From the NCBI GenBank assembly GCA_040830145.1, contig JBFOLQ010000318.1, positions 1-25,629 on the forward strand: DNA of 25,629 nt, in the 5' to 3' direction. The DNA is from Flavobacteriaceae bacterium. Lineage in GTDB: Bacteria > Bacteroidota > Bacteroidia > Flavobacteriales > Flavobacteriaceae. The translations under genes and the position numbers were made by a program. The notes beneath the pieces were generated by a model, which worked only from the letters and a program-made list of their open reading frames with translations, was not told the origin of the DNA and made no database searches. This document shows positions 3,300-13,595 of this stretch, in pieces (position 1 is the stretch's first letter; every line of letters starts with the position of its first letter).

Positions 3300-6200
3300 A
3301 TGCCTAGAATTCCCGATGATATCAAGGCCCAAATACTAGACAGGGCCAGCCTTCATAACGTATTGAAGGAATACCATGGTCTCCATAAAAAGAAAGGGGC
3401 AAGTTACGTGATGGACTGCCCCAAGTGTGGTGTTAAGGACAAGCTGGAGTATTCAGAGGCCAAGGAAATAGCCAAATGCTTTAAGTGCGATATTGGTGTA
3501 AAGACACCCGCCAACTACCTTCAGAAGTTCCAGGGGTTGACCTATGGACAATCCCTAGAGGAGTTAGCACGTATAGAGGGGGTGGTTATTCCCAAGGGAA
3601 AACTGAACGAAAAGCGCAAGGCTTCACACCAAGTACCATATATCCAGGATTTTTTGGGGGGTTCTGGGCTTAACACAGGTGATATCACCGGCCCAGTATA
3701 TGTAGATGAAGAAACACGAAAGGAGGTGCCATCCTACGTGTCAGGTACGGTGGATACGGCCTTTGAGATTGTCCCGGGTGACGATGTGATCATACATTAT
3801 TATGATTTGGATGGAAGGCCCATGCAATACTACCGGAAGGACAAAAAAGGCAACCCGGTAGGAAAAAAACGAAACTTCTATCGGGTACGGTACCAGAATC
3901 CGGAACTGCACAAGGACAAGAATGACAACCCCATAAAATATCGTTCCCCCTTCGGCAGTGATACCAAGATTTATATTAACAAGTGGATCCGGGAAAAATA
4001 CAAGAAGAGTAGTAAGATACAGACGCTGTATATCCAAGAAGGTGAAAAAAAAGCGGACAAGGCGACCAAGCACGGCCTTATCTCAGTGGGCATCATGGGC
4101 ATACACAACATTGCCTACCAAAAACGTTTGCCGGTAGAGTTTGAGGCCATCATTAAACGTTGTCAGGTTGAGAATGTGGTGTTTGTCCTGGATTCTGATT
4201 GGGACCAATTGGGAAACCGCATTGATAGTAACCACTCCGCAGACCAACGCCCCAAAAGTTTTTTTAGGGCCGTGGTGAATTTCCGTAACCACTTCTATGC
4301 CTTTACCAATAATGACATATACCTGAACATCTATTTTGGGTATGTAAAGCCCAACCCCGAAAAAGACAAGGGTATAGATGACCTTTTGGTCAACTCGCTC
4401 CGGAATAAGGAGACAGAGCTTAAGCCCCTTTGCGAGGCGGCCCTCAAAGAACCCAAGGGTGATGCCACCTGGTTGCAGTTTCACAACATAACTTCCATGA
4501 GCGAATATAAGATCATGGGGTTTTGGCATTTGGGGAATGTAGATGATTTTACGGCCCACTACCGTGAGCGGTTACGTACCCTGCCCAAATTTAGGTACGG
4601 TAGTATTGAATGGCGGTACAACGATAAGGGCGCCCGTGAGTTGGCACAGCCCTTGATGCCACAGGATACCTTTTGGAACGAGGATATCAGAAAAGATGAC
4701 CACGGCCGTATCATCAGTAAAAAATTAAGCTTTAACCATCACCGGTGCTACACTTTTTTAAGGAACCGCGGGTACTATCGCCTGGGCCAGCCCAACAATA
4801 GTTTTATCTGGATAAAGATTGAGGGAAACATCGTCACCCGGGTAGAGCCATATCAGATCAAGGACTTTGTCATTGATTTTACTGAGCAATTAAATAAGGA
4901 GGACGTGCTCAATATGCTCTACCGTGGGGGACGTATGTACTTAGGGCCAGAAAGCTTGGGAAACCTTCATTTTACAAACCTGGCACTCCATTCGGCCAGT
5001 AAGAACACCCAATACATCTATTTCAATAAAAATTTCTTTAAGATAACTGATGAGGGCATAGAGCTAGAGGAGATAAAGAACCTTAATGGCCAGGTGTGGC
5101 GCGACAACATTATTGACTTTTCACCCATAAAGACAGAACCGCTGTTGAGCGAGGTACATCAGATCAATGAAAATGATATCCGGGCCAATGAGAATCTGGC
5201 CAATTTTAAGGGGGAGTACTCTGTGGGTTTTTCTGAAAGTGGAAATCGCTGTCACTTTCTCAGCTTTTTGCTCAATACAAGCACCTTTTTTGGGAAGGAC
5301 AAGAGCTTTGAGGATGCCACTTTTGAAGAGCGCTTTGAGACTACCCGTCATTTACTGTCAAAACTTACCGCCTTTGGTTATATGTTGCACAGGTACCGTA
5401 ATGCAGCTGTTGAAAAGGCCGTTGTGGGCATGGATGGCACCATGAGTGAAGTGGGCAAAAGCAATGGTAGAAGCGGCAAAAGTCTTTTTGGTCTGGCTGT
5501 AGAGCAATTGATACCCACAGTGACCATTCCCGGGAAAAAGCGAAATCTGCTAGAGGACCAATTTTTGTTCCAGGAAGTGGACCAACGTACAGCTGCCATT
5601 TTCTTTGACGATGTACGTTCAAATTTTGATTTTGAGTTTTTGTTTCCCTACATCACCGGTAAGTTCACCTTGGAGAAAAAGGGAATGGGCAAAATGACCC
5701 TGCCCCGTGATTTTGTCCAAAAATTCTACATCAGCACAAACCATGCCCTACGTGGTGATGGGGGAAGCTTTGAGGACCGCCAGTTTATGCTGGGCTTCAG
5801 TAATTGGTACAATGCCAGGCACAAGCCCATTGATGACTTCAAGGTCATGTTTTTTGACGAATGGGACGAAACCCAATGGAACCTCTTCTATAATCTGGCA
5901 GCCCTATGCCTTCACCTGTACTTTAAACACGGCTTAATACCGGCGCCCAGTGAAAAGCTTATCAATCGTAAGCTGCGCCAGGAAATGGGCGAACAGTTTC
6001 TGGATTGGGCAGAGGAATATTTCAGCAACCCCCAGAACGTACAATGCCAGATTTATAAAGACACCATGTACCAAGCTACCCGCGGGGAACAGGATCACAT
6101 GCAGCATGGCGATGGTTTTGTGACCAAATACCCAGGGCAGCGAAGGTTTACCCCCATACAGATTTTTAAGACCAAAGTAAAGCTCTATTGCAAGTACAAG

Positions 6201-6338
6201 GGCTTTGACTTTAACCCCTCTAAGAACGGGGGCGATATCAAAAAGGGCGGCAAGGAATACCTGGCCGTTTTTATTCCGGAAGAAGACTATGAACAAATTA
6301 AGGCAGAGCTACCGGTTGAGGATGAGCTGCCCATTTAA
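3300..6338 (+). CDS. Phage DNA primase-helicase (Zn finger + TOPRIM + SF3-type P-loop helicase)
   Basis: CPKC..CFKC zinc finger, TOPRIM motifs IQEGEKKAD, DSDWD and KGIDD, Walker A SNGRSGKS and Walker B AIFFDDV. Confidence 0.9.
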   Translation: MPRIPDDIKAQILDRASLHNVLKEYHGLHKKKGASYVMDCPKCGVKDKLEYSEAKEIAKCFKCDIGVKTPANYLQKFQGLTYGQSLEELARIEGVVIPKGKLNEKRKASHQVPYIQDFLGGSGLNTGDITGPVYVDEETRKEVPSYVSGTVDTAFEIVPGDDVIIHYYDLDGRPMQYYRKDKKGNPVGKKRNFYRVRYQNPELHKDKNDNPIKYRSPFGSDTKIYINKWIREKYKKSSKIQTLYIQEGEKKADKATKHGLISVGIMGIHNIAYQKRLPVEFEAIIKRCQVENVVFVLDSDWDQLGNRIDSNHSADQRPKSFFRAVVNFRNHFYAFTNNDIYLNIYFGYVKPNPEKDKGIDDLLVNSLRNKETELKPLCEAALKEPKGDATWLQFHNITSMSEYKIMGFWHLGNVDDFTAHYRERLRTLPKFRYGSIEWRYNDKGARELAQPLMPQDTFWNEDIRKDDHGRIISKKLSFNHHRCYTFLRNRGYYRLGQPNNSFIWIKIEGNIVTRVEPYQIKDFVIDFTEQLNKEDVLNMLYRGGRMYLGPESLGNLHFTNLALHSASKNTQYIYFNKNFFKITDEGIELEEIKNLNGQVWRDNIIDFSPIKTEPLLSEVHQINENDIRANENLANFKGEYSVGFSESGNRCHFLSFLLNTSTFFGKDKSFEDATFEERFETTRHLLSKLTAFGYMLHRYRNAAVEKAVVGMDGTMSEVGKSNGRSGKSLFGLAVEQLIPTVTIPGKKRNLLEDQFLFQEVDQRTAAIFFDDVRSNFDFEFLFPYITGKFTLEKKGMGKMTLPRDFVQKFYISTNHALRGDGGSFEDRQFMLGFSNWYNARHKPIDDFKVMFFDEWDETQWNLFYNLAALCLHLYFKHGLIPAPSEKLINRKLRQEMGEQFLDWAEEYFSNPQNVQCQIYKDTMYQATRGEQDHMQHGDGFVTKYPGQRRFTPIQIFKTKVKLYCKYKGFDFNPSKNGGDIKKGGKEYLAVFIPEEDYEQIKAELPVEDELPI

Positions 6339-6347
6339 AACTTAAGC

Positions 6348-6497
6348 ATGGAAGAAGACTTCTTAGAGGCTGTTAGAGCGATGCGCAAGGCCCAGAACAG
6401 CTATTTCACCACTAGAAAACGAGGGGCTTTGATTAGGAGCAAACAATTGGAAAAAAAGGTTGATGCCATGATAGATGCGCATGACAAAACAAAATGA
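6348..6497 (+). CDS. Small phage protein, 49 aa, not in the track (MEEDFLEAVRAMRKAQNSYFTTRKRGALIRSKQLEKKVDAMIDAHDKTK)
   Basis: Translated by hand. ATGA overlap with 6494. The MR.AQ..YF.TR..SK.LEK.VD pattern is recalled from Bacteroidota phages. Confidence 0.75.
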   Translation: MEEDFLEAVRAMRKAQNSYFTTRKRGALIRSKQLEKKVDAMIDAHDKTK

Positions 6498-6712
6498 CCG
6501 CTAAAGATTTCTGCCTTCATCATGGGTTTACGGTGATTAGCGAGGAAGTTGATGGCCGGTTTTTGATCCATGTACGGGATGCCAACAGACGCATTTTTCC
6601 AAAAGGGGAACGTAGGGGCAAAATTAGAATTAGGCAAGAAAGGTTAGAGGACCATATCAAAAACGCGTATCAGCGAATGATGGACATGATTTTGGACAAA
6701 ATTTATAAATAG
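6494..6712 (+). CDS. Hypothetical protein, 72 aa
   Basis: Coupled ORF: overlaps the upstream gene and abuts the downstream GTG. Confidence 0.7.
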   Translation: MTAKDFCLHHGFTVISEEVDGRFLIHVRDANRRIFPKGERRGKIRIRQERLEDHIKNAYQRMMDMILDKIYK

Positions 6713-9265
6713 GTGGATTACCAGGATTTTCTTAAAAACAAAATAAAGCTTTCCAAGCCAGTAGGGTTCAAGGTAACCCCTGCAGAGATATCCCCCTATT
6801 TAAAACCCCACAATCGCTTAATGGTCCAATGGTTGGTAGAGGGGGGCAAAAGGGCCTGTTTTGCAAGTTTCGGCCTCCATAAGACCGTAACCCAATTAGA
6901 GGCCGTTCGTGTCATTCGTGGCCGGGTCGGGGGTAAGGGACTCATTGTTTTGCCATTGAATGTGAAACAGGAATTTCAACGTGATGCCCTTGATATCCTA
7001 AAATGGCCAACTTCACCCAAGTTCATCCGTCATTCGGAACAAGCCACAGAGGACACCATTTACCTGACCAATTATGAAAGCATACGGGACGGCAAGCTTG
7101 ACCCACGTTTGTTTTCCGTGGCTAGTCTTGATGAAGCTTCTGTACTTAGGGGCATGGGCGGCACAAAGACCTTTAGGGAATTTATGAGATTGTTCACGGG
7201 CGATGAAGGCCCAAAAGGTGCGCGTAGAAATGCTGATACGGTCCCATATCGTTTCGTCGCCACAGCCACCCCTTCGCCCAATGACTATATAGAGCTATTG
7301 GCATATGCTGACTTTTTGGGCCAGATGGATGTGTCACAGGCCAAGACACGCTTCTTTAAACGGGACAGTACCAAGGCCGATAAGCTTACCCTACATGCCC
7401 ATAAAGAAGAGGAGTTTTGGCTATGGGTGGCTTCTTGGGCCTTATTCGTCTCAAAACCATCTGACATTACCGGTGACCCAAAGGATGATACGGGCTATAT
7501 ATTACCCCCTTTACAGGTGAACTGGCATGAAATCAAAACAGACCACTCCAAGGCCGGTACCGAAAAAAATGGCCAGGCCAAGTTGTTCAAAGATGCGGCC
7601 ATGGGCCTTCAAGATGCTGCCAAGGAAAAAAGGGAAAGTTTAGAGGATAGGGTGGCCAAGATGATGGAACTGCGACAGGAGGACCCGGAAGCCCACAGAA
7701 TACTGTGGCATGACTTAGAGTCAGAGCGCCGGGCCATAGAAAAGGCCATACCGGAAGCAGTAAGTATTTACGGCTCACAGGACCATGAAAAAAGGGAACG
7801 GGCCATTCTTGATTTTTCAAACGGACATATTAAAGAGCTGGCCGCAAAGCCTGTAATCGCCGGTTCTGGGTGCAATTTTCAGCGGTATTGCCATTGGGGC
7901 ATATACCTGGGCATAGGGTTCAAATTCAATGATTTTATACAATCCGTACACCGTATCCAACGGTTTTTGCAGGGGCATCCGGTGCGCATTGATTTGATTT
8001 ATACAGAGGCCGAACGGCGCATACGCAAACAACAGGAACAAAAGTGGCACAACCACGATAATCAAGTAAAGAAAATGGTTGAAATAGTAAAAAAATACGG
8101 ACTGAACCATCAGGCCATGGCCAAAAAACTATCCCGAAAAATGGGGGTTGAGCGGGTGGCCGTTGAAGGGAAGCTGTATACATTGGTGAACAACGACAAT
8201 GTGTTGGAGTTGCCCAGGATAAAAAGCAACTCCGTAGGGTTGGTACATACCAGTCTACCATTTACCAATCAATATGAGTATTCCCCCAATTATGCCGACT
8301 ATGGACACACTGAAAGCCCTGCCGAGTTCTTTCGCCAAATGGATTATTCCACTCCGGAAGTGTTCCGGGTACTCATGCCCGGTCGTATCGCTGCCATTCA
8401 TGTTAAGGACCGCATTGTCCCAGGAGGTGTAAATGGCCTAGGGTTTCAAACCGTATACCCATTCCATAAAGATTGTATTGAGCATTTCACAAAGCACGGT
8501 TTTGCCTATATAGGGGAAAAGACAATCATTACAGATGTGGTCCGTGAGAACAACCAGACGTATCGTCTGGGATGGACTGAACAGTGCAAGGATGGTACTA
8601 AAATGAGTGTGGGCATTCCCGAGAGGTTGTTGTTGTTCAGAAAGCCCCAGACAGATACATCAAAGAGTTATGCCGATATCCCCGTGGTCAAATCAAAGGA
8701 AGACTATTCCCGCTCACGCTGGCAATTTGATGCCCATGGTTTCACAAGGTCTTCTGGGAATCGTTGTTTAAGACCAAAGGAACTGGCCAAGTTGCCCCAT
8801 GAAAAGATATTCAAGGCATTTAAAAACTACTCATTGAATGAGGTGTTCAATTTTGAGCATGTGGTAAAGATTGGGGAGACCTTGGATGCATCCGGTAAGC
8901 TGCCAACCTCTTTTATGTTATTGCAACCACAGAGCTGGTCTAATGACGTGTGGACAGACATTACCCGTATGTTGACCCTGAATAGTGCACAATGGAGCAA
9001 AGGGAAAGAAATGCATCTGTGCCCCCTCCAGTTTGATATTGTGGACAGGGTCATAGCACAAATGAGCAACCCTGGCGATATCGTGCTTGATTATTTCAGT
9101 GGCATAGGCACCGTGCCCTACAGGTCCATTTTGTTGGGCCGGTACGGGTATGGCATTGAGTTGGCCCCAAACTACTTCCTGGATGGCGCCCATTATTGTA
9201 AAGCTGCAGAGGCCAAAGTGACCATGCCCAGTCTATTTGACACCCTAAAAGAAGAATTAATATAA
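6713..9265 (+). CDS. SNF2-like helicase fused to an N4/N6 DNA methyltransferase
   Basis: Helicase motifs FGLHKT, LDEAS, TATPSPND and HRIQRF. The MTase part has catalytic-type TSLPF first and SAM-binding LDYFSGIGT near the C-terminus (beta-class order). Confidence 0.88.
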   Translation: MDYQDFLKNKIKLSKPVGFKVTPAEISPYLKPHNRLMVQWLVEGGKRACFASFGLHKTVTQLEAVRVIRGRVGGKGLIVLPLNVKQEFQRDALDILKWPTSPKFIRHSEQATEDTIYLTNYESIRDGKLDPRLFSVASLDEASVLRGMGGTKTFREFMRLFTGDEGPKGARRNADTVPYRFVATATPSPNDYIELLAYADFLGQMDVSQAKTRFFKRDSTKADKLTLHAHKEEEFWLWVASWALFVSKPSDITGDPKDDTGYILPPLQVNWHEIKTDHSKAGTEKNGQAKLFKDAAMGLQDAAKEKRESLEDRVAKMMELRQEDPEAHRILWHDLESERRAIEKAIPEAVSIYGSQDHEKRERAILDFSNGHIKELAAKPVIAGSGCNFQRYCHWGIYLGIGFKFNDFIQSVHRIQRFLQGHPVRIDLIYTEAERRIRKQQEQKWHNHDNQVKKMVEIVKKYGLNHQAMAKKLSRKMGVERVAVEGKLYTLVNNDNVLELPRIKSNSVGLVHTSLPFTNQYEYSPNYADYGHTESPAEFFRQMDYSTPEVFRVLMPGRIAAIHVKDRIVPGGVNGLGFQTVYPFHKDCIEHFTKHGFAYIGEKTIITDVVRENNQTYRLGWTEQCKDGTKMSVGIPERLLLFRKPQTDTSKSYADIPVVKSKEDYSRSRWQFDAHGFTRSSGNRCLRPKELAKLPHEKIFKAFKNYSLNEVFNFEHVVKIGETLDASGKLPTSFMLLQPQSWSNDVWTDITRMLTLNSAQWSKGKEMHLCPLQFDIVDRVIAQMSNPGDIVLDYFSGIGTVPYRSILLGRYGYGIELAPNYFLDGAHYCKAAEAKVTMPSLFDTLKEELI

Positions 9266-9275
9266 AACTACAACT

Positions 9276-9695
9276 ATGAAAATTGTCATCAATAAAGACA
9301 ACGTCAAAAAGCAGTCCATTGTGCTCCAGTTTGGCAAGCACAAAAGACCATTTTTAAGGGTTTCAAGAAATACCATCTACATATCCACCATAGCCGTGCG
9401 TGAGCTTGGGTTGGAAAAGGAGGATACTGTAGAATTTGTTTTGAACTATACTGATGAGCAACGTGTGTGGTTACGAAAAACCAAAGCAAAGAACGGATTT
9501 AGGAGTGTAGAGCATCCAACACACGGGCGCAAGTATCACCGAGTGATTTCAAATCCAATGTGTAGGCTTCTCAGGTACTTTTTTAACCAAGGGGACAATG
9601 CTCCTTTTCTGATTGGGCTTCGTTCTGGCGAAACCAAAAACCATATGCTATTGATTAATGACCCATTAGTGGAACTTAACTCGGCAACCAAATGA
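9276..9695 (+). CDS. Hypothetical basic protein, 139 aa
   Basis: Coupled ORF in the early operon. Confidence 0.7.
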   Translation: MKIVINKDNVKKQSIVLQFGKHKRPFLRVSRNTIYISTIAVRELGLEKEDTVEFVLNYTDEQRVWLRKTKAKNGFRSVEHPTHGRKYHRVISNPMCRLLRYFFNQGDNAPFLIGLRSGETKNHMLLINDPLVELNSATK

Positions 9696-9889
9696 AACTC
9701 ATACGGCGCATAGGGGCCTTGGTCTTTGGGGTTATTTTCTTGATATCCCTGGTATGCACTTTGCCGGTGGCGGCGCTATTGATACTGAACCATTTTTTAC
9801 ACAGAATACAAATTAAAAACCTGATATCATGGAAAGATCAGCACGGAAAAAAATTGAGTGCAACGGCCAGTGGGCCTTCATCTACGTAA
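9692..9889 (+). CDS. Small membrane protein
   Basis: ATGA overlap and one long hydrophobic segment. Confidence 0.55.
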   Translation: MKLIRRIGALVFGVIFLISLVCTLPVAALLILNHFLHRIQIKNLISWKDQHGKKLSATASGPSST

Positions 9890-10128
9890 ACCTAAACGCC
9901 AAAAGGGAAAGACGTCCTCATGGAAAGACCTATCACCATATAAAAGTCAGTGGCCCCTATAATGGATATTTCTCGGAGGCCCTGGCAGATGCTAATGGTA
10001 ATTTAGAAGACCATGTTGTGAAGCAAGAACAACTGTTTTATGACTGGGCATCGGATCCAAAGCGAAAGAGTGCTGAAGAAAAACTGTTGGAAAACTTAGG
10101 TTTTGAACTGGAAAAGGAAAGGATATGA
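9829..10128 (+). CDS. Hypothetical protein, 99 aa
   Basis: Natural-looking composition and an ATGA overlap with the next gene. Overlaps the previous ORF by 61 nt. Confidence 0.6.
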   Translation: MERSARKKIECNGQWAFIYVNLNAKRERRPHGKTYHHIKVSGPYNGYFSEALADANGNLEDHVVKQEQLFYDWASDPKRKSAEEKLLENLGFELEKERI

Positions 10129-10757
10129 CTCTACCGTTTATGACCCATTGGGGTGAGGACATGCCAGAACATATGGCAGGGGGGTCAACGTATTTTGTTG
10201 AGATGGTTTGGTCCTCAATTGACGAACAACTGTTAGATGAATTCTTTTGGGACAACCACCATATCAGCTTTCATAACCGTGAAGAAATTTGGAGGCTTTT
10301 TGAAGCTGTGGATTATAAAATAGATTGGGATGCCTATGACTGTTTAGTTCGGGATGATGAAGGTAAAATCCACACTATCCGTTTTATGACACCAGAACGG
10401 GCAGCACAATGGGCCAAGAAGGACCGTGAGATTCATTTCTACATCAACAATAGAACACCAAGAGCATTTCGGTTTGCGCCCTTGATTAAAAGGAAAGGGT
10501 TTCAGAAAATCGAGATAGAGCACTCATTATCTAATCCTCCTATAGTAAGAGTTAAAATAGAAGGTAAACAACTGTGGACGGGTAATCCTTATGACAAATT
10601 TATGTCCGGGTCTTTTCCAATGGTGGATTTGGCCATTAACGACGGATTCGAGGCAATAGAAGACTTCTTCGCCTACTTCAGGCCTGAAAGGATAGCAAAG
10701 GCCCAAAAGGCCGGTAAAGATCCATATATCATTCATTGGACTGGAAAATTGTACTAA
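10125..10757 (+). CDS. ASCH/PUA-like phage protein (putative)
   Basis: Motifs KIHTIR, LAINDGF..IEDFFAYF and IIHWT..Y, recalled from ASCH-like phage proteins. Confidence 0.55.
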   Translation: MTLPFMTHWGEDMPEHMAGGSTYFVEMVWSSIDEQLLDEFFWDNHHISFHNREEIWRLFEAVDYKIDWDAYDCLVRDDEGKIHTIRFMTPERAAQWAKKDREIHFYINNRTPRAFRFAPLIKRKGFQKIEIEHSLSNPPIVRVKIEGKQLWTGNPYDKFMSGSFPMVDLAINDGFEAIEDFFAYFRPERIAKAQKAGKDPYIIHWTGKLY

Positions 10758-10760
10758 AAG

Positions 10761-11399
10761 ATGAAGGTTTTAATTACACATGAAGCAAGTCAGACAGTCT
10801 GTCGTGCTTTTAGAGAATTGGGCCATGAGGCCTTTTCAAACGACCTGAAGGATTGCTACGGGGGACATCCTGAATGGCACATGAAAATGGATTGCTATAA
10901 AGCGGTTAGGTCGCAGAAATGGGATTTGATAATTGCACATCCAGAATGTACCAAACTTGCCGTTTCAGGGAATGCCACCTATGCTTTGGGTAAGGCAAGG
11001 TACAATGAAAGAAGGGAAGCGGCTAAATGGACACAGGACTATTGGAGCTTCTGTACAAGTAATTGTCAGAAGGTTTGTTTTGAAAACCCAATAGGGGTCC
11101 TCCCCAGAATGACCAATTTACCCAAACCTACTTACATACAACCTTTTCAATTTGGGCATCCGGAACCAAAAAAAACAGCCCTGTTCTTATTTGGATTACC
11201 CTCTTTAAAACCAACCAAAATAGTTTCACCTAAATATATTGTTGGGAAAGACGGGAAGAAATATTCCCGCCTTCATTACCTAACAAAACACTCGGCAATG
11301 AAATATTATGGACAGGATAGGGCCACCGTTAGAAGCCAGACCTATCAAGGGGTTGCCAAGGCAATGGCCCTACAGTGGGGCAAACACAATAACATTTAA
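10761..11399 (+). CDS. Short phage DNA cytosine-methyltransferase-like protein
   Basis: MKVLI.HE.SQ.V..AF...GHEAFS.DL...GGHPEWH, WDLIIAHPECT (PC-motif variant) and FENPIG (ENV-like). Confidence 0.7.
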   Translation: MKVLITHEASQTVCRAFRELGHEAFSNDLKDCYGGHPEWHMKMDCYKAVRSQKWDLIIAHPECTKLAVSGNATYALGKARYNERREAAKWTQDYWSFCTSNCQKVCFENPIGVLPRMTNLPKPTYIQPFQFGHPEPKKTALFLFGLPSLKPTKIVSPKYIVGKDGKKYSRLHYLTKHSAMKYYGQDRATVRSQTYQGVAKAMALQWGKHNNI

Positions 11400-11409
11400 A
11401 TACACCATC

Positions 11410-11745
11410 ATGATTAGAACCTATGAATATCAATACAACTGGGGCGAGGCCCAAGTAAAAATGCAGATTGACGATGAAAAATTGTCAAAAGATGACTGTA
11501 AGGATCTATTGAATTTTTTTACATGGAAATGGGACAAAGAGGCTGACCCCTATGATGAGCTGGCCCGGTTGTATTGCCGTACCGCTATAGTTTTTGCTAC
11601 TGCCAATTTTCACAACACATATGGGGTGTTAAGGGACTTTGAAGAAGCCGAAGGCTACCCAAACCTGGATGGCACCTACGGGATTACCTTGGTTGATGTT
11701 GAAGGGATAGACCTTCATGAAATAGAACTTGAAAAGGTTGAATAA
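11410..11745 (+). CDS. DUF2528-like phage protein (start trimmed to ATG11410)
   Basis: NTYGVLRDF..AEGYPNLDGTYGITLV motif. The track start at 11308 overlaps the MTase gene and is unlikely. Confidence 0.6.
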   Translation: MIRTYEYQYNWGEAQVKMQIDDEKLSKDDCKDLLNFFTWKWDKEADPYDELARLYCRTAIVFATANFHNTYGVLRDFEEAEGYPNLDGTYGITLVDVEGIDLHEIELEKVE

Positions 11746-12459: not shown

Positions 12460-12493
12460 AACAGCCCGGTTTCTGGAGCTAAAAAGTTATTTG

Positions 12494-12501
12494 TATGTTT
12501 G
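12494..12501 (+). promoter_or_regulatory. -7 promoter element TATGTTTG preceding a structured leader
   Basis: Exact match to TAnnTTTG. The -33 element is weak. Confidence 0.55.
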
Positions 12502-12505
12502 TATC

Positions 12506-12644
12506 GAAGCAACGATTTAGGAGCAATCCGAAATCAATTATTTACGATAAGCCGCTGCCCAAGGTGTTTCCTAAGTGGTAGCAGATTAAACCGAAAGGCT
12601 GCACTCCGATCCTAGATCGTTGCTTCAGCCCTAAAGGCAGCGGC
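12506..12644 (+). ncRNA. Structured cis-regulatory/antisense-type RNA leader with crossing complementary segments
   Basis: 17-bp helix 12506-22/12610-26 (one G-U), 9-bp helix 12551-59/12636-44, and two GNRA-capped hairpins. Confidence 0.7.
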
Positions 12645-12664
12645 GCATACAAACACTTTTCGAG

Positions 12665-12925
12665 ATGAAGCAAGAAAAGGTAATCACCGTGGGCGGTACC
12701 ACCTATTGGGCCGTAACCCCCGCACAAAAAGAATTGTTAGAGCTTTTACGGCACAACAATGCCGAGCGCCACTACCAGGCATTAAAGAACGTACACCACC
12801 TGGCCACCTATTTTTCGGACAAGGACCTTATGGTACTATGGCAGCACGGTTTTGTACAAGATTTGTTAGATGCCATTGGTAATATCAAAACAGAGCATTT
12901 TATACACACCTTAAAAGAAGCATGA
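12665..12925 (+). CDS. Hypothetical protein controlled by the structured leader
   Basis: ATG 21 nt after the last helix. 86 aa. Confidence 0.7.
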   Translation: MKQEKVITVGGTTYWAVTPAQKELLELLRHNNAERHYQALKNVHHLATYFSDKDLMVLWQHGFVQDLLDAIGNIKTEHFIHTLKEA

Positions 12926-12926
12926 T

Positions 12927-13157
12927 ATGCCCATTAAAAAAGAACGCCATAAGGCCATTGTGGCCTTTTTGTCCCAGTTTGGCCCGGTAGTTGCCAGTGG
13001 TATTGGCAATGTAGACCAGGAGGTGGCCAACCTATCTGTGACCACCGACCATTTGCCTTTTCAAGCACTGGAGAACATAGCCGCGTTTGCCAAGGCCATG
13101 GGCCAACAATATGAGATTGCGGCAGGGCGCTCAAAGCTCACCCTCCGCTTTCTTTAG
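12927..13157 (+). CDS. Hypothetical protein, 76 aa
   Basis: Coupled to the previous ORF and followed by a hairpin cluster. Confidence 0.7.
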   Translation: MPIKKERHKAIVAFLSQFGPVVASGIGNVDQEVANLSVTTDHLPFQALENIAAFAKAMGQQYEIAAGRSKLTLRFL

Positions 13158-13177: not shown

Positions 13178-13234
13178 GACCGCTTTTGCGGTCGAAGTTA
13201 ACCCCAAGCCCCGCACCGCGGGGCTTGTCCTTTT
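13178..13234 (+). terminator. Double hairpin ending the early operon
   Basis: GACCGC-tttt-GCGGTC (13178-93) and AAGCCCCGC-acc-GCGGGGCTT (13206-26), followed by gtcctttt. Confidence 0.6.
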
Positions 13235-13374
13235 AGTACTTTTTACACTCTCCAATTTCCTTATTTCCCCCTGTACCCCCTTTAAAATATAGGAATTAAG
13301 TGGTGCAATCATGCGGGACATAGATATATAGTCTCTTTTTTTAAAGTATACTTATTAAATAATTACAAGGGGGC

Positions 13375-13595
13375 TGTGCATTTGTGCACTTTTAGTGTAA
13401 CAATCTTTTAACTAATGAGTTATGGCGCACGATTGGCGCACGATTGTGCACGATTTACACAAAAAACGCACGATTGATTTAGTTGTGCGCCCCTAGGCCC
13501 AATCGTGCGCCGTTGTGCATTAATCGTGCACACTAAAACCCCTGTATTTACGGGGTTTCCGCAAGTTTTCTTTAACACTTTGCACAAGTGCACGG
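13375..13595. repeat. Iteron-like array (putative replication origin): 4 direct + 2 inverted GCACGATT copies
   Basis: Direct copies at 13427, 13438, 13448 and 13468. Inverted AATCGTGC at 13501 and 13522. Further GTGCAC/TGTGCA variants, an AT-rich tract at about 13320-13365, and a hairpin at 13536-58. Confidence 0.75.

Follow-up and report, generated by a model that had tools for sequence, protein, structure and literature searches.

A probable c4-type antisense RNA cassette with crossing helices in a phage-like contig from Flavobacteriaceae

Results

The locus and its genes

The window, i.e. the whole stretch of DNA that was analysed, is one complete contig of 25.6 kb (25,629 nt). It belongs to a metagenome-assembled genome (MAG; 74% complete, 3.4 Mb) of the Flavobacteriaceae obtained from a mollusc metagenome. 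By its gene content the contig is phage-like (Table 1). The leader described here lies in a 205-nt gap that separates a 61-aa ORF from an 86-aa ORF. A scan for tRNA and tmRNA genes returned none. Inverted repeats based on GCACGATT overlap one another in a cluster at 13413-13532, in another non-coding gap, which lies 3' of the strong terminator-like hairpin (13205-13227) that closes the unit of the 86-aa and 76-aa genes.

The AlphaFold2 model of the 86-aa protein (pLDDT 88) consists of a β-hairpin and three helices. Neither the sequence of this protein in Pfam, PHROG and PDB nor a fold search of the model against the PDB at E ≤ 0.001 gave a match, and no family match was found for the 76-aa ORF of the window.

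Table 1. Positions of genes, promoter elements and RNA elements in the window.
Feature	Position	Strand	Remarks
HTH repressor candidate (weak)	1158-1580
Primase, helicase-methylase, second methylase and DUF2528 gene	3300-11745
Invariant box TTTGTATGTTTGT	12490-12502	+	holds the Bacteroidota-type -7 motif TAnnTTTG
TATGTTTG, TAnnTTTG -7 motif	12494-12501	+
Outer 9-bp inverted repeat	12496-12504 / 12647-12655
B, putative 5' target/decoy copy (a1b1 equivalent)	12506-12522	+	17 bp with 12610-12626
H1, local GNRA hairpin GAUUU-A-GGA-GCAA-UCC-G-AAAUC	12514-12535	+	alternative to pairing of the 3' half of B with B'
c4-2-like RNA domain, ~94 nt	12551-12644	+	C/C', stem D, GAAA hairpin, hairpin 2
C/C', outer stem	12551-12559 / 12636-12644	+	9 perfect bp
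D, short inner stem	about 12577-79 / 12628-30	+
P3, GAAA-loop hairpin GCAG..CC-GAAA-GG-CUGC	12581-12602	+	corresponds to hairpin 1 of c4-2
Hairpin 2, CGAUC-CUA-GAUCG	12607-12619	+	includes the 5' half of B' (loop and 3' arm)
B', putative antisense segment (a'b' equivalent)	12610-12626	+
Anti-address, single-stranded junction UUGCUUCA	12620-12627	+	complementary to 12506-12512 and 12666-12673
O', 3' arm of the outer repeat	12647-12655	+	within the conserved GCAUACAAA motif
Putative 3' target copy (a2 equivalent), UGAAGCAA	12666-12673	+	UG of the start codon and codons 2-3
Proposed gated gene, 86 aa, motif VTPAQKELLELL	12665-12925	+	24 representatives in the HMMER library
76-aa gene, second in the unit	12927-13157	+	no relatives found
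Intrinsic-terminator-like hairpin	13205-13236	+	closes the two-gene unit; 10-bp stem with 8 G-C pairs, then a T run
Tail-like, pectate-lyase, lysis and head genes	from 13694 onward

Homologous copies of the cassette

DNA searches with the region or with the homologous leaders gave no match in 400 genomes of the same family and in GenBank phages. Scans of viral contigs for close relatives of the proteins from the 86-aa, 76-aa and methylase genes found none, and in a word-index protein search the proteins matched only themselves. With a profile of the 86-aa family the window was the sole match when 400 genomes of the phylum were searched. In 80 phage loci that share the helicase-methylase (60-78% identity) the leader was absent and no synteny was seen 3' of the helicase. 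The exact pattern of the two B arms, searched for in viral, metagenome and genome collections, yielded chance matches only (L092-L097).

A full HMMER scan placed the 86-aa ORF in a small family, and a profile scan of viral contigs with this family led to one locus, L099, which plainly carries the same leader upstream. Two pattern scans with motifs common to the leaders of the window and L099 gave L101, L102, L105, L106 and L107. A covariance model, R1, was built from the window and six homologs. It found second copies inside two of these phage genomes (L113 and L114) and matched one further copy, L122, in a bacterial genome of the same family. In total, nine homologous copies of the ~175-nt cassette were obtained from viral contigs and one same-family genome. 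L113 (G791:44799-44961) and L114 (G788:30931-31092) are the more divergent copies of two complete phage genomes.

The genes 3' of the cassette differ between the copies. At L099 it is followed by a homolog of the 86-aa protein and a P22_AR_N/Ant protein, and at L101 by an 86-aa homolog, a KilA-N protein and an Ant protein. A KilA-N protein lies directly 3' of the cassette at L107 and a RadC protein at L105, and other small acidic proteins are found at L102, L106, L113 and L114. It is presumably the same cassette that controls these Ant and KilA-N genes of antirepressor type in the relatives.

A repeat or MITE was discarded as an explanation, the element being single-copy in the 3.4-Mb MAG. A CRISPR-repeat mimic was likewise discarded, as a crude scan of the MAG revealed no arrays and nothing resembling the element. 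Within the unpaired part of the leader, 21 nt (12531-12551) match two contigs of the host (G000) at 90% identity (C441:5548-5568 and C425:2826-2846). Both matches sit within a repeated AT-rich intergenic element, and with an E-value of 0.6 the similarity is probably due to chance.

Two crossing helices are conserved as plus-strand RNA

The leader contains two long-range helices, B/B' and C/C', whose arms follow each other in the order B-C-B'-C', so that the helices cross. Both had been proposed in a preliminary description of this DNA, together with the local GCAA hairpin (H1) and the GAAA hairpin (P3), and all four were recovered exactly as described there. B/B' consists of 16 Watson-Crick pairs and one U.G pair (U12517.G12615) and is the top near-perfect inverted repeat (within 300 nt) of the whole window. 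If up to three mismatches are allowed, B is found in the window only in these two arms, with 0.06 occurrences expected. Taken together, the helices go far beyond what chance would produce. For a transcript beginning at 12506, the fold closed by B has a predicted free energy of -52.6 kcal/mol and the fold with C/C' and the local hairpin one of -47.1 kcal/mol. Compared with shuffled sequences, the fold z-scores are -2.9 for the plus strand and -3.5 for the minus strand.

Covariation was counted on a MAFFT alignment of seven sequences (A5) for helices B and C and the GAAA hairpin, 28 pairs altogether. In this alignment 97.9% of the paired cells can pair, compared with 31-47% when the partners are slid by 1-3 columns. 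Double changes occur in 15 of the 28 pairs, and none of 500 shuffles equalled any of the measures. Compensatory changes affect 8 of the 17 pairs of helix B, for which RNAalifold agrees, and double changes affect six of the eight counted pairs of C/C'. Covariation is thus strong in both helices. The U.G pair of B/B' is kept in 6/7 copies. Altogether 14 paired cells are G.U and would turn into A.C mismatches if the other strand were read; therefore, the RNA is encoded on the plus strand. The conserved object is a plus-strand RNA, and each of the two crossing helices is genuine.

For a separate view of the C-C' domain, in which MAFFT misplaced the outer stem, minimum-free-energy (MFE) folds and the Rfam alignment were used. 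The MFE folds of the excised domain show the c4-2 architecture (see below) in most copies. By eye, further variation that retains pairing is visible in the smaller stems. No copy lacks H1, and in L113 (AUUCAG/CUGAAU) and L114 (GGAG-UUA-CUCC) its changes compensate each other. The lower stem of P3 varies among the copies (GCAG/CUGC, GCAA/UUGC, GCUA/UAGC, ACAA/UUGU), and the stems of hairpin 2 covary across them (CGUUC/GAACG, UGUUC/GAACA, CAGUC/GACUG). The inner stem, again judged by eye, likewise covaries between copies (GGGU/ACCC, GGUG/CACC, GAUG/CAUC).

Predicted promoter box and outer repeat

The box TTTGTATGTTTGT is identical in all seven aligned copies. TAnnTTTG, which it contains, is the published promoter consensus of Bacteroidota. 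From this consensus we infer promoter function and a transcript start at ~12506, about 5 nt past the -7 box and at the first base of B. On the plus strand of the window the motif occurs only four times (12494, 18501, 18835 and 21680). On both strands together 16 occurrences were observed and ~26 are expected; the coding strand seems to avoid the motif. At L106 a clean intrinsic terminator, i.e. a GC-rich hairpin and a T run (L106:4950-4995), runs directly into the box. Since this terminator abuts the box, the cassette needs its own promoter. At the same locus there is no space for a conventional -33 element.

The preliminary description also contained an outer 9-bp repeat that overlaps the promoter. 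The repeat and its overlap with the promoter are present in the window. The sequence of O' is conserved in six copies and absent from L106, L113 and L114, where UUUAAU replaces CAUACAA. No covariation was found. The 5' arm lies inside the invariant promoter box and upstream of the likely start site. Because the 3' arm is replaced in homologs and the 5' arm is part of the promoter box, the outer repeat is not counted as a helix and is probably not one in the RNA.

Relation to the c4-2 RNA motif

The c4-2 RNA motif (RF02944) is catalogued in Rfam as an sRNA of clan CL00128 (Weinberg et al. 2017, PMC5737381). We found no experimental work on c4-2 and no stated mechanism in the literature. The window itself has no Rfam match at gathering level and none at E ≤ 10, regardless of whether 601 or 116 bases were searched; known riboswitch families of Rfam gave no match either. 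The C-C' domains of L108, L110 and L111, however, align to RF02944 over the full length of the model with 27-30 bits, where the gathering threshold is 41. In this alignment C/C' is the outer stem, UAUGG, a 4-bp stem and CCUAA form the inner stem, the GAAA hairpin is hairpin 1, and the B' region corresponds to hairpin 2 and the unpaired junction. UAUGG and a 4-bp inner stem closing before CCUAA are present exactly in L108-L111. The counterpart in the window is UAAGUGG, a 3-bp GGU/GCC stem and CCCUAAA.

Among 150 genomes of the phylum, strong matches to RF02944 (54-77 bits) were confined to two genomes of the family to which the window belongs. Six matches are canonical, with direct repeats of 13-15 nt on either side of the RNA. 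The second of these repeats stops a few bases short of the ATG, and the loop and the junction of the RNA are complementary to both, which is the layout of a1b1 and a2b2 in phage P1. The seventh match, L122 (53.6 bits), has the whole architecture of the window-type leader and is matched by R1 from end to end (69.9 bits, E 4.5e-14). Judged from these alignments, the element of the window is a divergent member of c4-2 by transitive membership, since L122 matches both R1 and RF02944. In one of the genomes, G450, six c4-2 RNAs exceed the Rfam threshold (L116, L118-L122); they are spread over five contigs. Two of its c4-2 RNAs lie 8 kb apart; the genes downstream of them are near-identical and their target repeats are different.

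The likeness extends to the outer stem (~10 bp in c4-2, 9 bp in the window) and to the succession of a GAAA-loop first hairpin, a second hairpin and a single-stranded junction. In the same host family, c4-2 is also accompanied by a TAnnTTTG box and flanking target repeats, as is the window-type leader. Differences from c4-2 were also noted. The copy in the window has a lineage-specific insertion of 12-15 nt after the outer stem, which is probably, at least in part, the reason why the Rfam model misses it. The upstream copy of the window subtype pairs continuously over 17 bp with loop, stem and junction of hairpin 2, whereas c4-2 has two boxes. Finally, the downstream copy of the window subtype is a junction target of only 7-9 nt on the start codon, in contrast to the position a few bases upstream in c4-2. 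The inserted segment, located directly after C at 12560-12576, resembles a partial duplication of AAGGUG / AAGUGG.

A short address is shared by three sites

In 9/10 copies the first 7-9 nt of B recur at or directly after the AUG of the downstream gene, and the complement of this address is the 3' half of B'. The address reads GAAGCAA in the window, UGACCAA in L099, AUGACAGAA in L101, GCAAGAA in L102 and L105, GCAUACA in L106, UGUCCACA in L113 and UGAAAACA in L114. The match at the start codon is only weak in the L107/L111 copy. The three sites vary in concert among the copies. When the junction pairs with the start, it covers the last two bases of the AUG and a further six or seven bases. The mean energy of the duplex between junction and start is -9.6 kcal/mol for a copy's own start and -4.3 kcal/mol for the starts of other copies. 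None of 50000 permutations over the ten copies was as good as own-copy pairing; a seven-copy version of the statistic was also run.

Within helix B, variability is highest at positions 2-5 of B, and where one phage has two copies, their addresses differ. Because the address is the most variable part although each change requires two matching changes elsewhere, its variability suggests selection for distinct specificities. L113 and L114 each have an address different from that of the first copy and lie 5' of a different small acidic protein near morphogenesis-like genes, so that two orthogonal switches may operate in a single phage.

At L099, L101 and L105 the coding starts resemble each other. 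The first eight codons are alike (M-x-[EK]-[EK]-x-N-F-V) despite differing proteins (RadC in L105), and UUUGUA in codons 6-8 is complementary to the conserved UACAAA 5' of the AUG. The cassette seems to reach ~25 nt into the coding region.

Discussion

Comparison with known phage RNAs

The preliminary description compared the leader with P4 CI and P1 c4 RNA, and this comparison gained support from the homology to c4-2, from the three-site address and from the Ant and KilA-N genes in the relatives. In P1 the order of immI is c4-icd-ant with kilA nearby (PMC8198154). According to PMC5320573, c4 acts after RNase P processing; for the mechanism, both sources cite Citron and Schuster (1990, 1992) and Hartmann (1995). 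As in immI of P1 and P7 (a1 b1 - c4 - a2 b2 - icd - ant; C4, RF01695), the putative antisense RNA of the window is located in the leader of the operon that it would control. Like c4, it has one target copy upstream and another where translation of the first small gene begins, and its recognition sequences are phage-specific. The 86-aa gene holds the position of icd, and in the relatives the small ORF is followed by antirepressor and KilA-N genes, again as in immI. In contrast to P1, the operon of the window has no ant gene. The C4 covariance model (RF01695) did not match the window or seven homologous loci at E ≤ 1.

The putative target in the window also differs from that of c4 in P1, being the AUG and codons 2-3 rather than the ribosome-binding site. 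To our knowledge, Bacteroidota do without Shine-Dalgarno-led initiation, and this property of the host accounts for the different target.

The CI RNA of P4 and phiR73 (seqA - seqB - seqC) is a middle RNA that is processed from the leader and is complementary to two flanking copies. The middle RNA of the window likewise has a complementary copy on each side within one transcript. CI works mainly by premature transcription termination, whereas no terminator lies between RNA and gene in the window; a sequence or model match to CI was not found. The sar RNA of P22 is a small antisense RNA that limits synthesis of the antirepressor (ant) and is transcribed from the opposite strand across the start of ant. 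In contrast, the RNA of the window lies on the same strand and upstream of the gene.

Two other parts of the preliminary description fared less well. The proposed antirepressor or toxic function of the genes at 12665-13157 was not borne out, as no such signature was detected in the 86-aa and 76-aa ORFs of the window. A plain Rfam match, named there as the result that would remove the novelty, was obtained in part: the copy in the window has none, while its family overlaps RF02944. As far as the comparisons go, what is new is a divergent member of a known, experimentally unstudied RNA family.

Proposed mechanism

Our preferred explanation, to which we assign a probability of about 0.7, is that the stretch is a c4-type antisense RNA cassette. 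The transcript from ~12506 would contain B, then the C-C' domain and then the address copy at the start codon, with the antisense sequence carried by the loop of hairpin 2 and the single-stranded junction. If B captures the emerging B', the 17-bp helix would leave the start codon free and translation could proceed. If the domain adopts the C-C' fold with a free junction, the junction would pair with the UG of the AUG and codons 2-3 and thereby block initiation. Release of the junction may follow from processing of the domain or from occupation of B by an RNA copy that is already present. The targets of the junction could be the start codon of its own transcript (in cis) or other transcripts that share the address (in trans); c4 RNA acts in this way at the icd-ant operon of P1. 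At equilibrium B:B' amounts to -26 kcal/mol and the pairing of junction and start to ~-10 kcal/mol. Because B:B' far outcompetes the latter, repression requires an extra event, either processing or an RNA in trans. In P1 and P7, RNase P yields a stable c4 RNA of about 77 nt that acts in trans. Processing to a small RNA and action of the domain in trans would presumably be part of the mechanism proposed for the window. The leader sequence was absent from the RNA runs of the sample, all of which are oligo-dT libraries.

A more elaborate version is put forward tentatively, and we regard it as rather doubtful. Here the cassette would be a self-masking, address-coded RNA immunity switch with feed-forward shut-off, the address of which is under diversifying selection. 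During a first infection the 5' copy B would capture the antisense segment in the course of transcription, and the operon would be expressed. Once free c4-2-type RNA has accumulated, it would bind B of new transcripts and release their antisense segment onto the start codon. Diversification of the 7-9 nt address could yield two orthogonal switches per phage on different gene modules and might allow related phages to escape each other's immunity.

If the c4-type reading is correct, the window and its nine relatives would give c4-2 a concrete, testable mechanism in Bacteroidota, in which Shine-Dalgarno sites are lacking. The underlying principle would be a conserved RNA scaffold bearing a short, variable address that has its counterparts at the 5' end of the transcript and on the start codon of the gene under control. 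In prophages of the marine Flavobacteriaceae type, antirepressor-type modules would then presumably be subject to P1-like RNA control, and the address-coded switches could serve as orthogonal regulators for Bacteroidota genetics. In addition, divergent members are missed by the Rfam model, and the RNA has been mistranslated as an N-terminal extension in public gene calls.

Alternative explanations

The strongest competitor is a two-state leader that acts only in cis, similar to a riboswitch or attenuator, and is never processed. A ligand, a protein or temperature would shift it between B:B', with the start free, and H1 plus C/C', with the junction on the start codon. It would fit the modest difference of 5.5 kcal/mol between the two nested alternative folds, the high conservation of the unpaired motifs and GNRA loops, and the 3' arm of H1, which by eye mimics the 5' half of B'. 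We nevertheless consider it unlikely. The leader is homologous to c4-2, which is catalogued as an sRNA, and resembles none of the known riboswitch families. Its most variable part is the address, which differs even between two copies of one phage and fits distinct specificities, not a shared ligand. Nor do the downstream genes belong to one metabolic pathway, as those of a riboswitch would; they are phage regulators of several kinds.

Much less probable still is a site that acts as DNA, whether an operator pair, an inverton, an origin or a recombination site formed by the inverted repeats. Such repeats are symmetric by nature, the outer one overlaps the promoter box, the minus strand folds slightly better than the plus strand, and invertons are common in Bacteroidota. 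However, the 14 G.U cells would be mismatches in DNA, including the U.G that is retained in nearly all aligned copies, and the helix sequences change freely while pairing is retained. A third covarying site lies inside the coding start. Furthermore, no recombinase adjoins the leader, B-like sequence is confined to the two arms, and, against an inverton in particular, 12523-12609 contains no TAnnTTTG.

That the leader is coding, as an N-terminal extension or an upstream ORF, is scarcely credible: six family representatives are annotated as long forms from an ATG inside TATGTTTG and a 140-aa frame is open through the leader of L099, but the leaders of the window and L101 contain stops in the frame of the gene, translation of the conserved hairpin differs in frame among the long forms (FRSNPK and LGAIQN), so that conservation is at the nucleotide level, and base-pair covariation accounts for the pattern.

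The long gene calls comprise 134-140 aa (P0003, P0007, P0014, P0015, P0020 and P0022; L099:2839-3261). They start at the ATG inside the -7 motif or at the ATG of the 5' address copy and contain the RNA leader translated as an N-terminal extension. On comparison of their reading frames these extensions are best regarded as annotation artefacts, because two frames are used for one and the same conserved hairpin.
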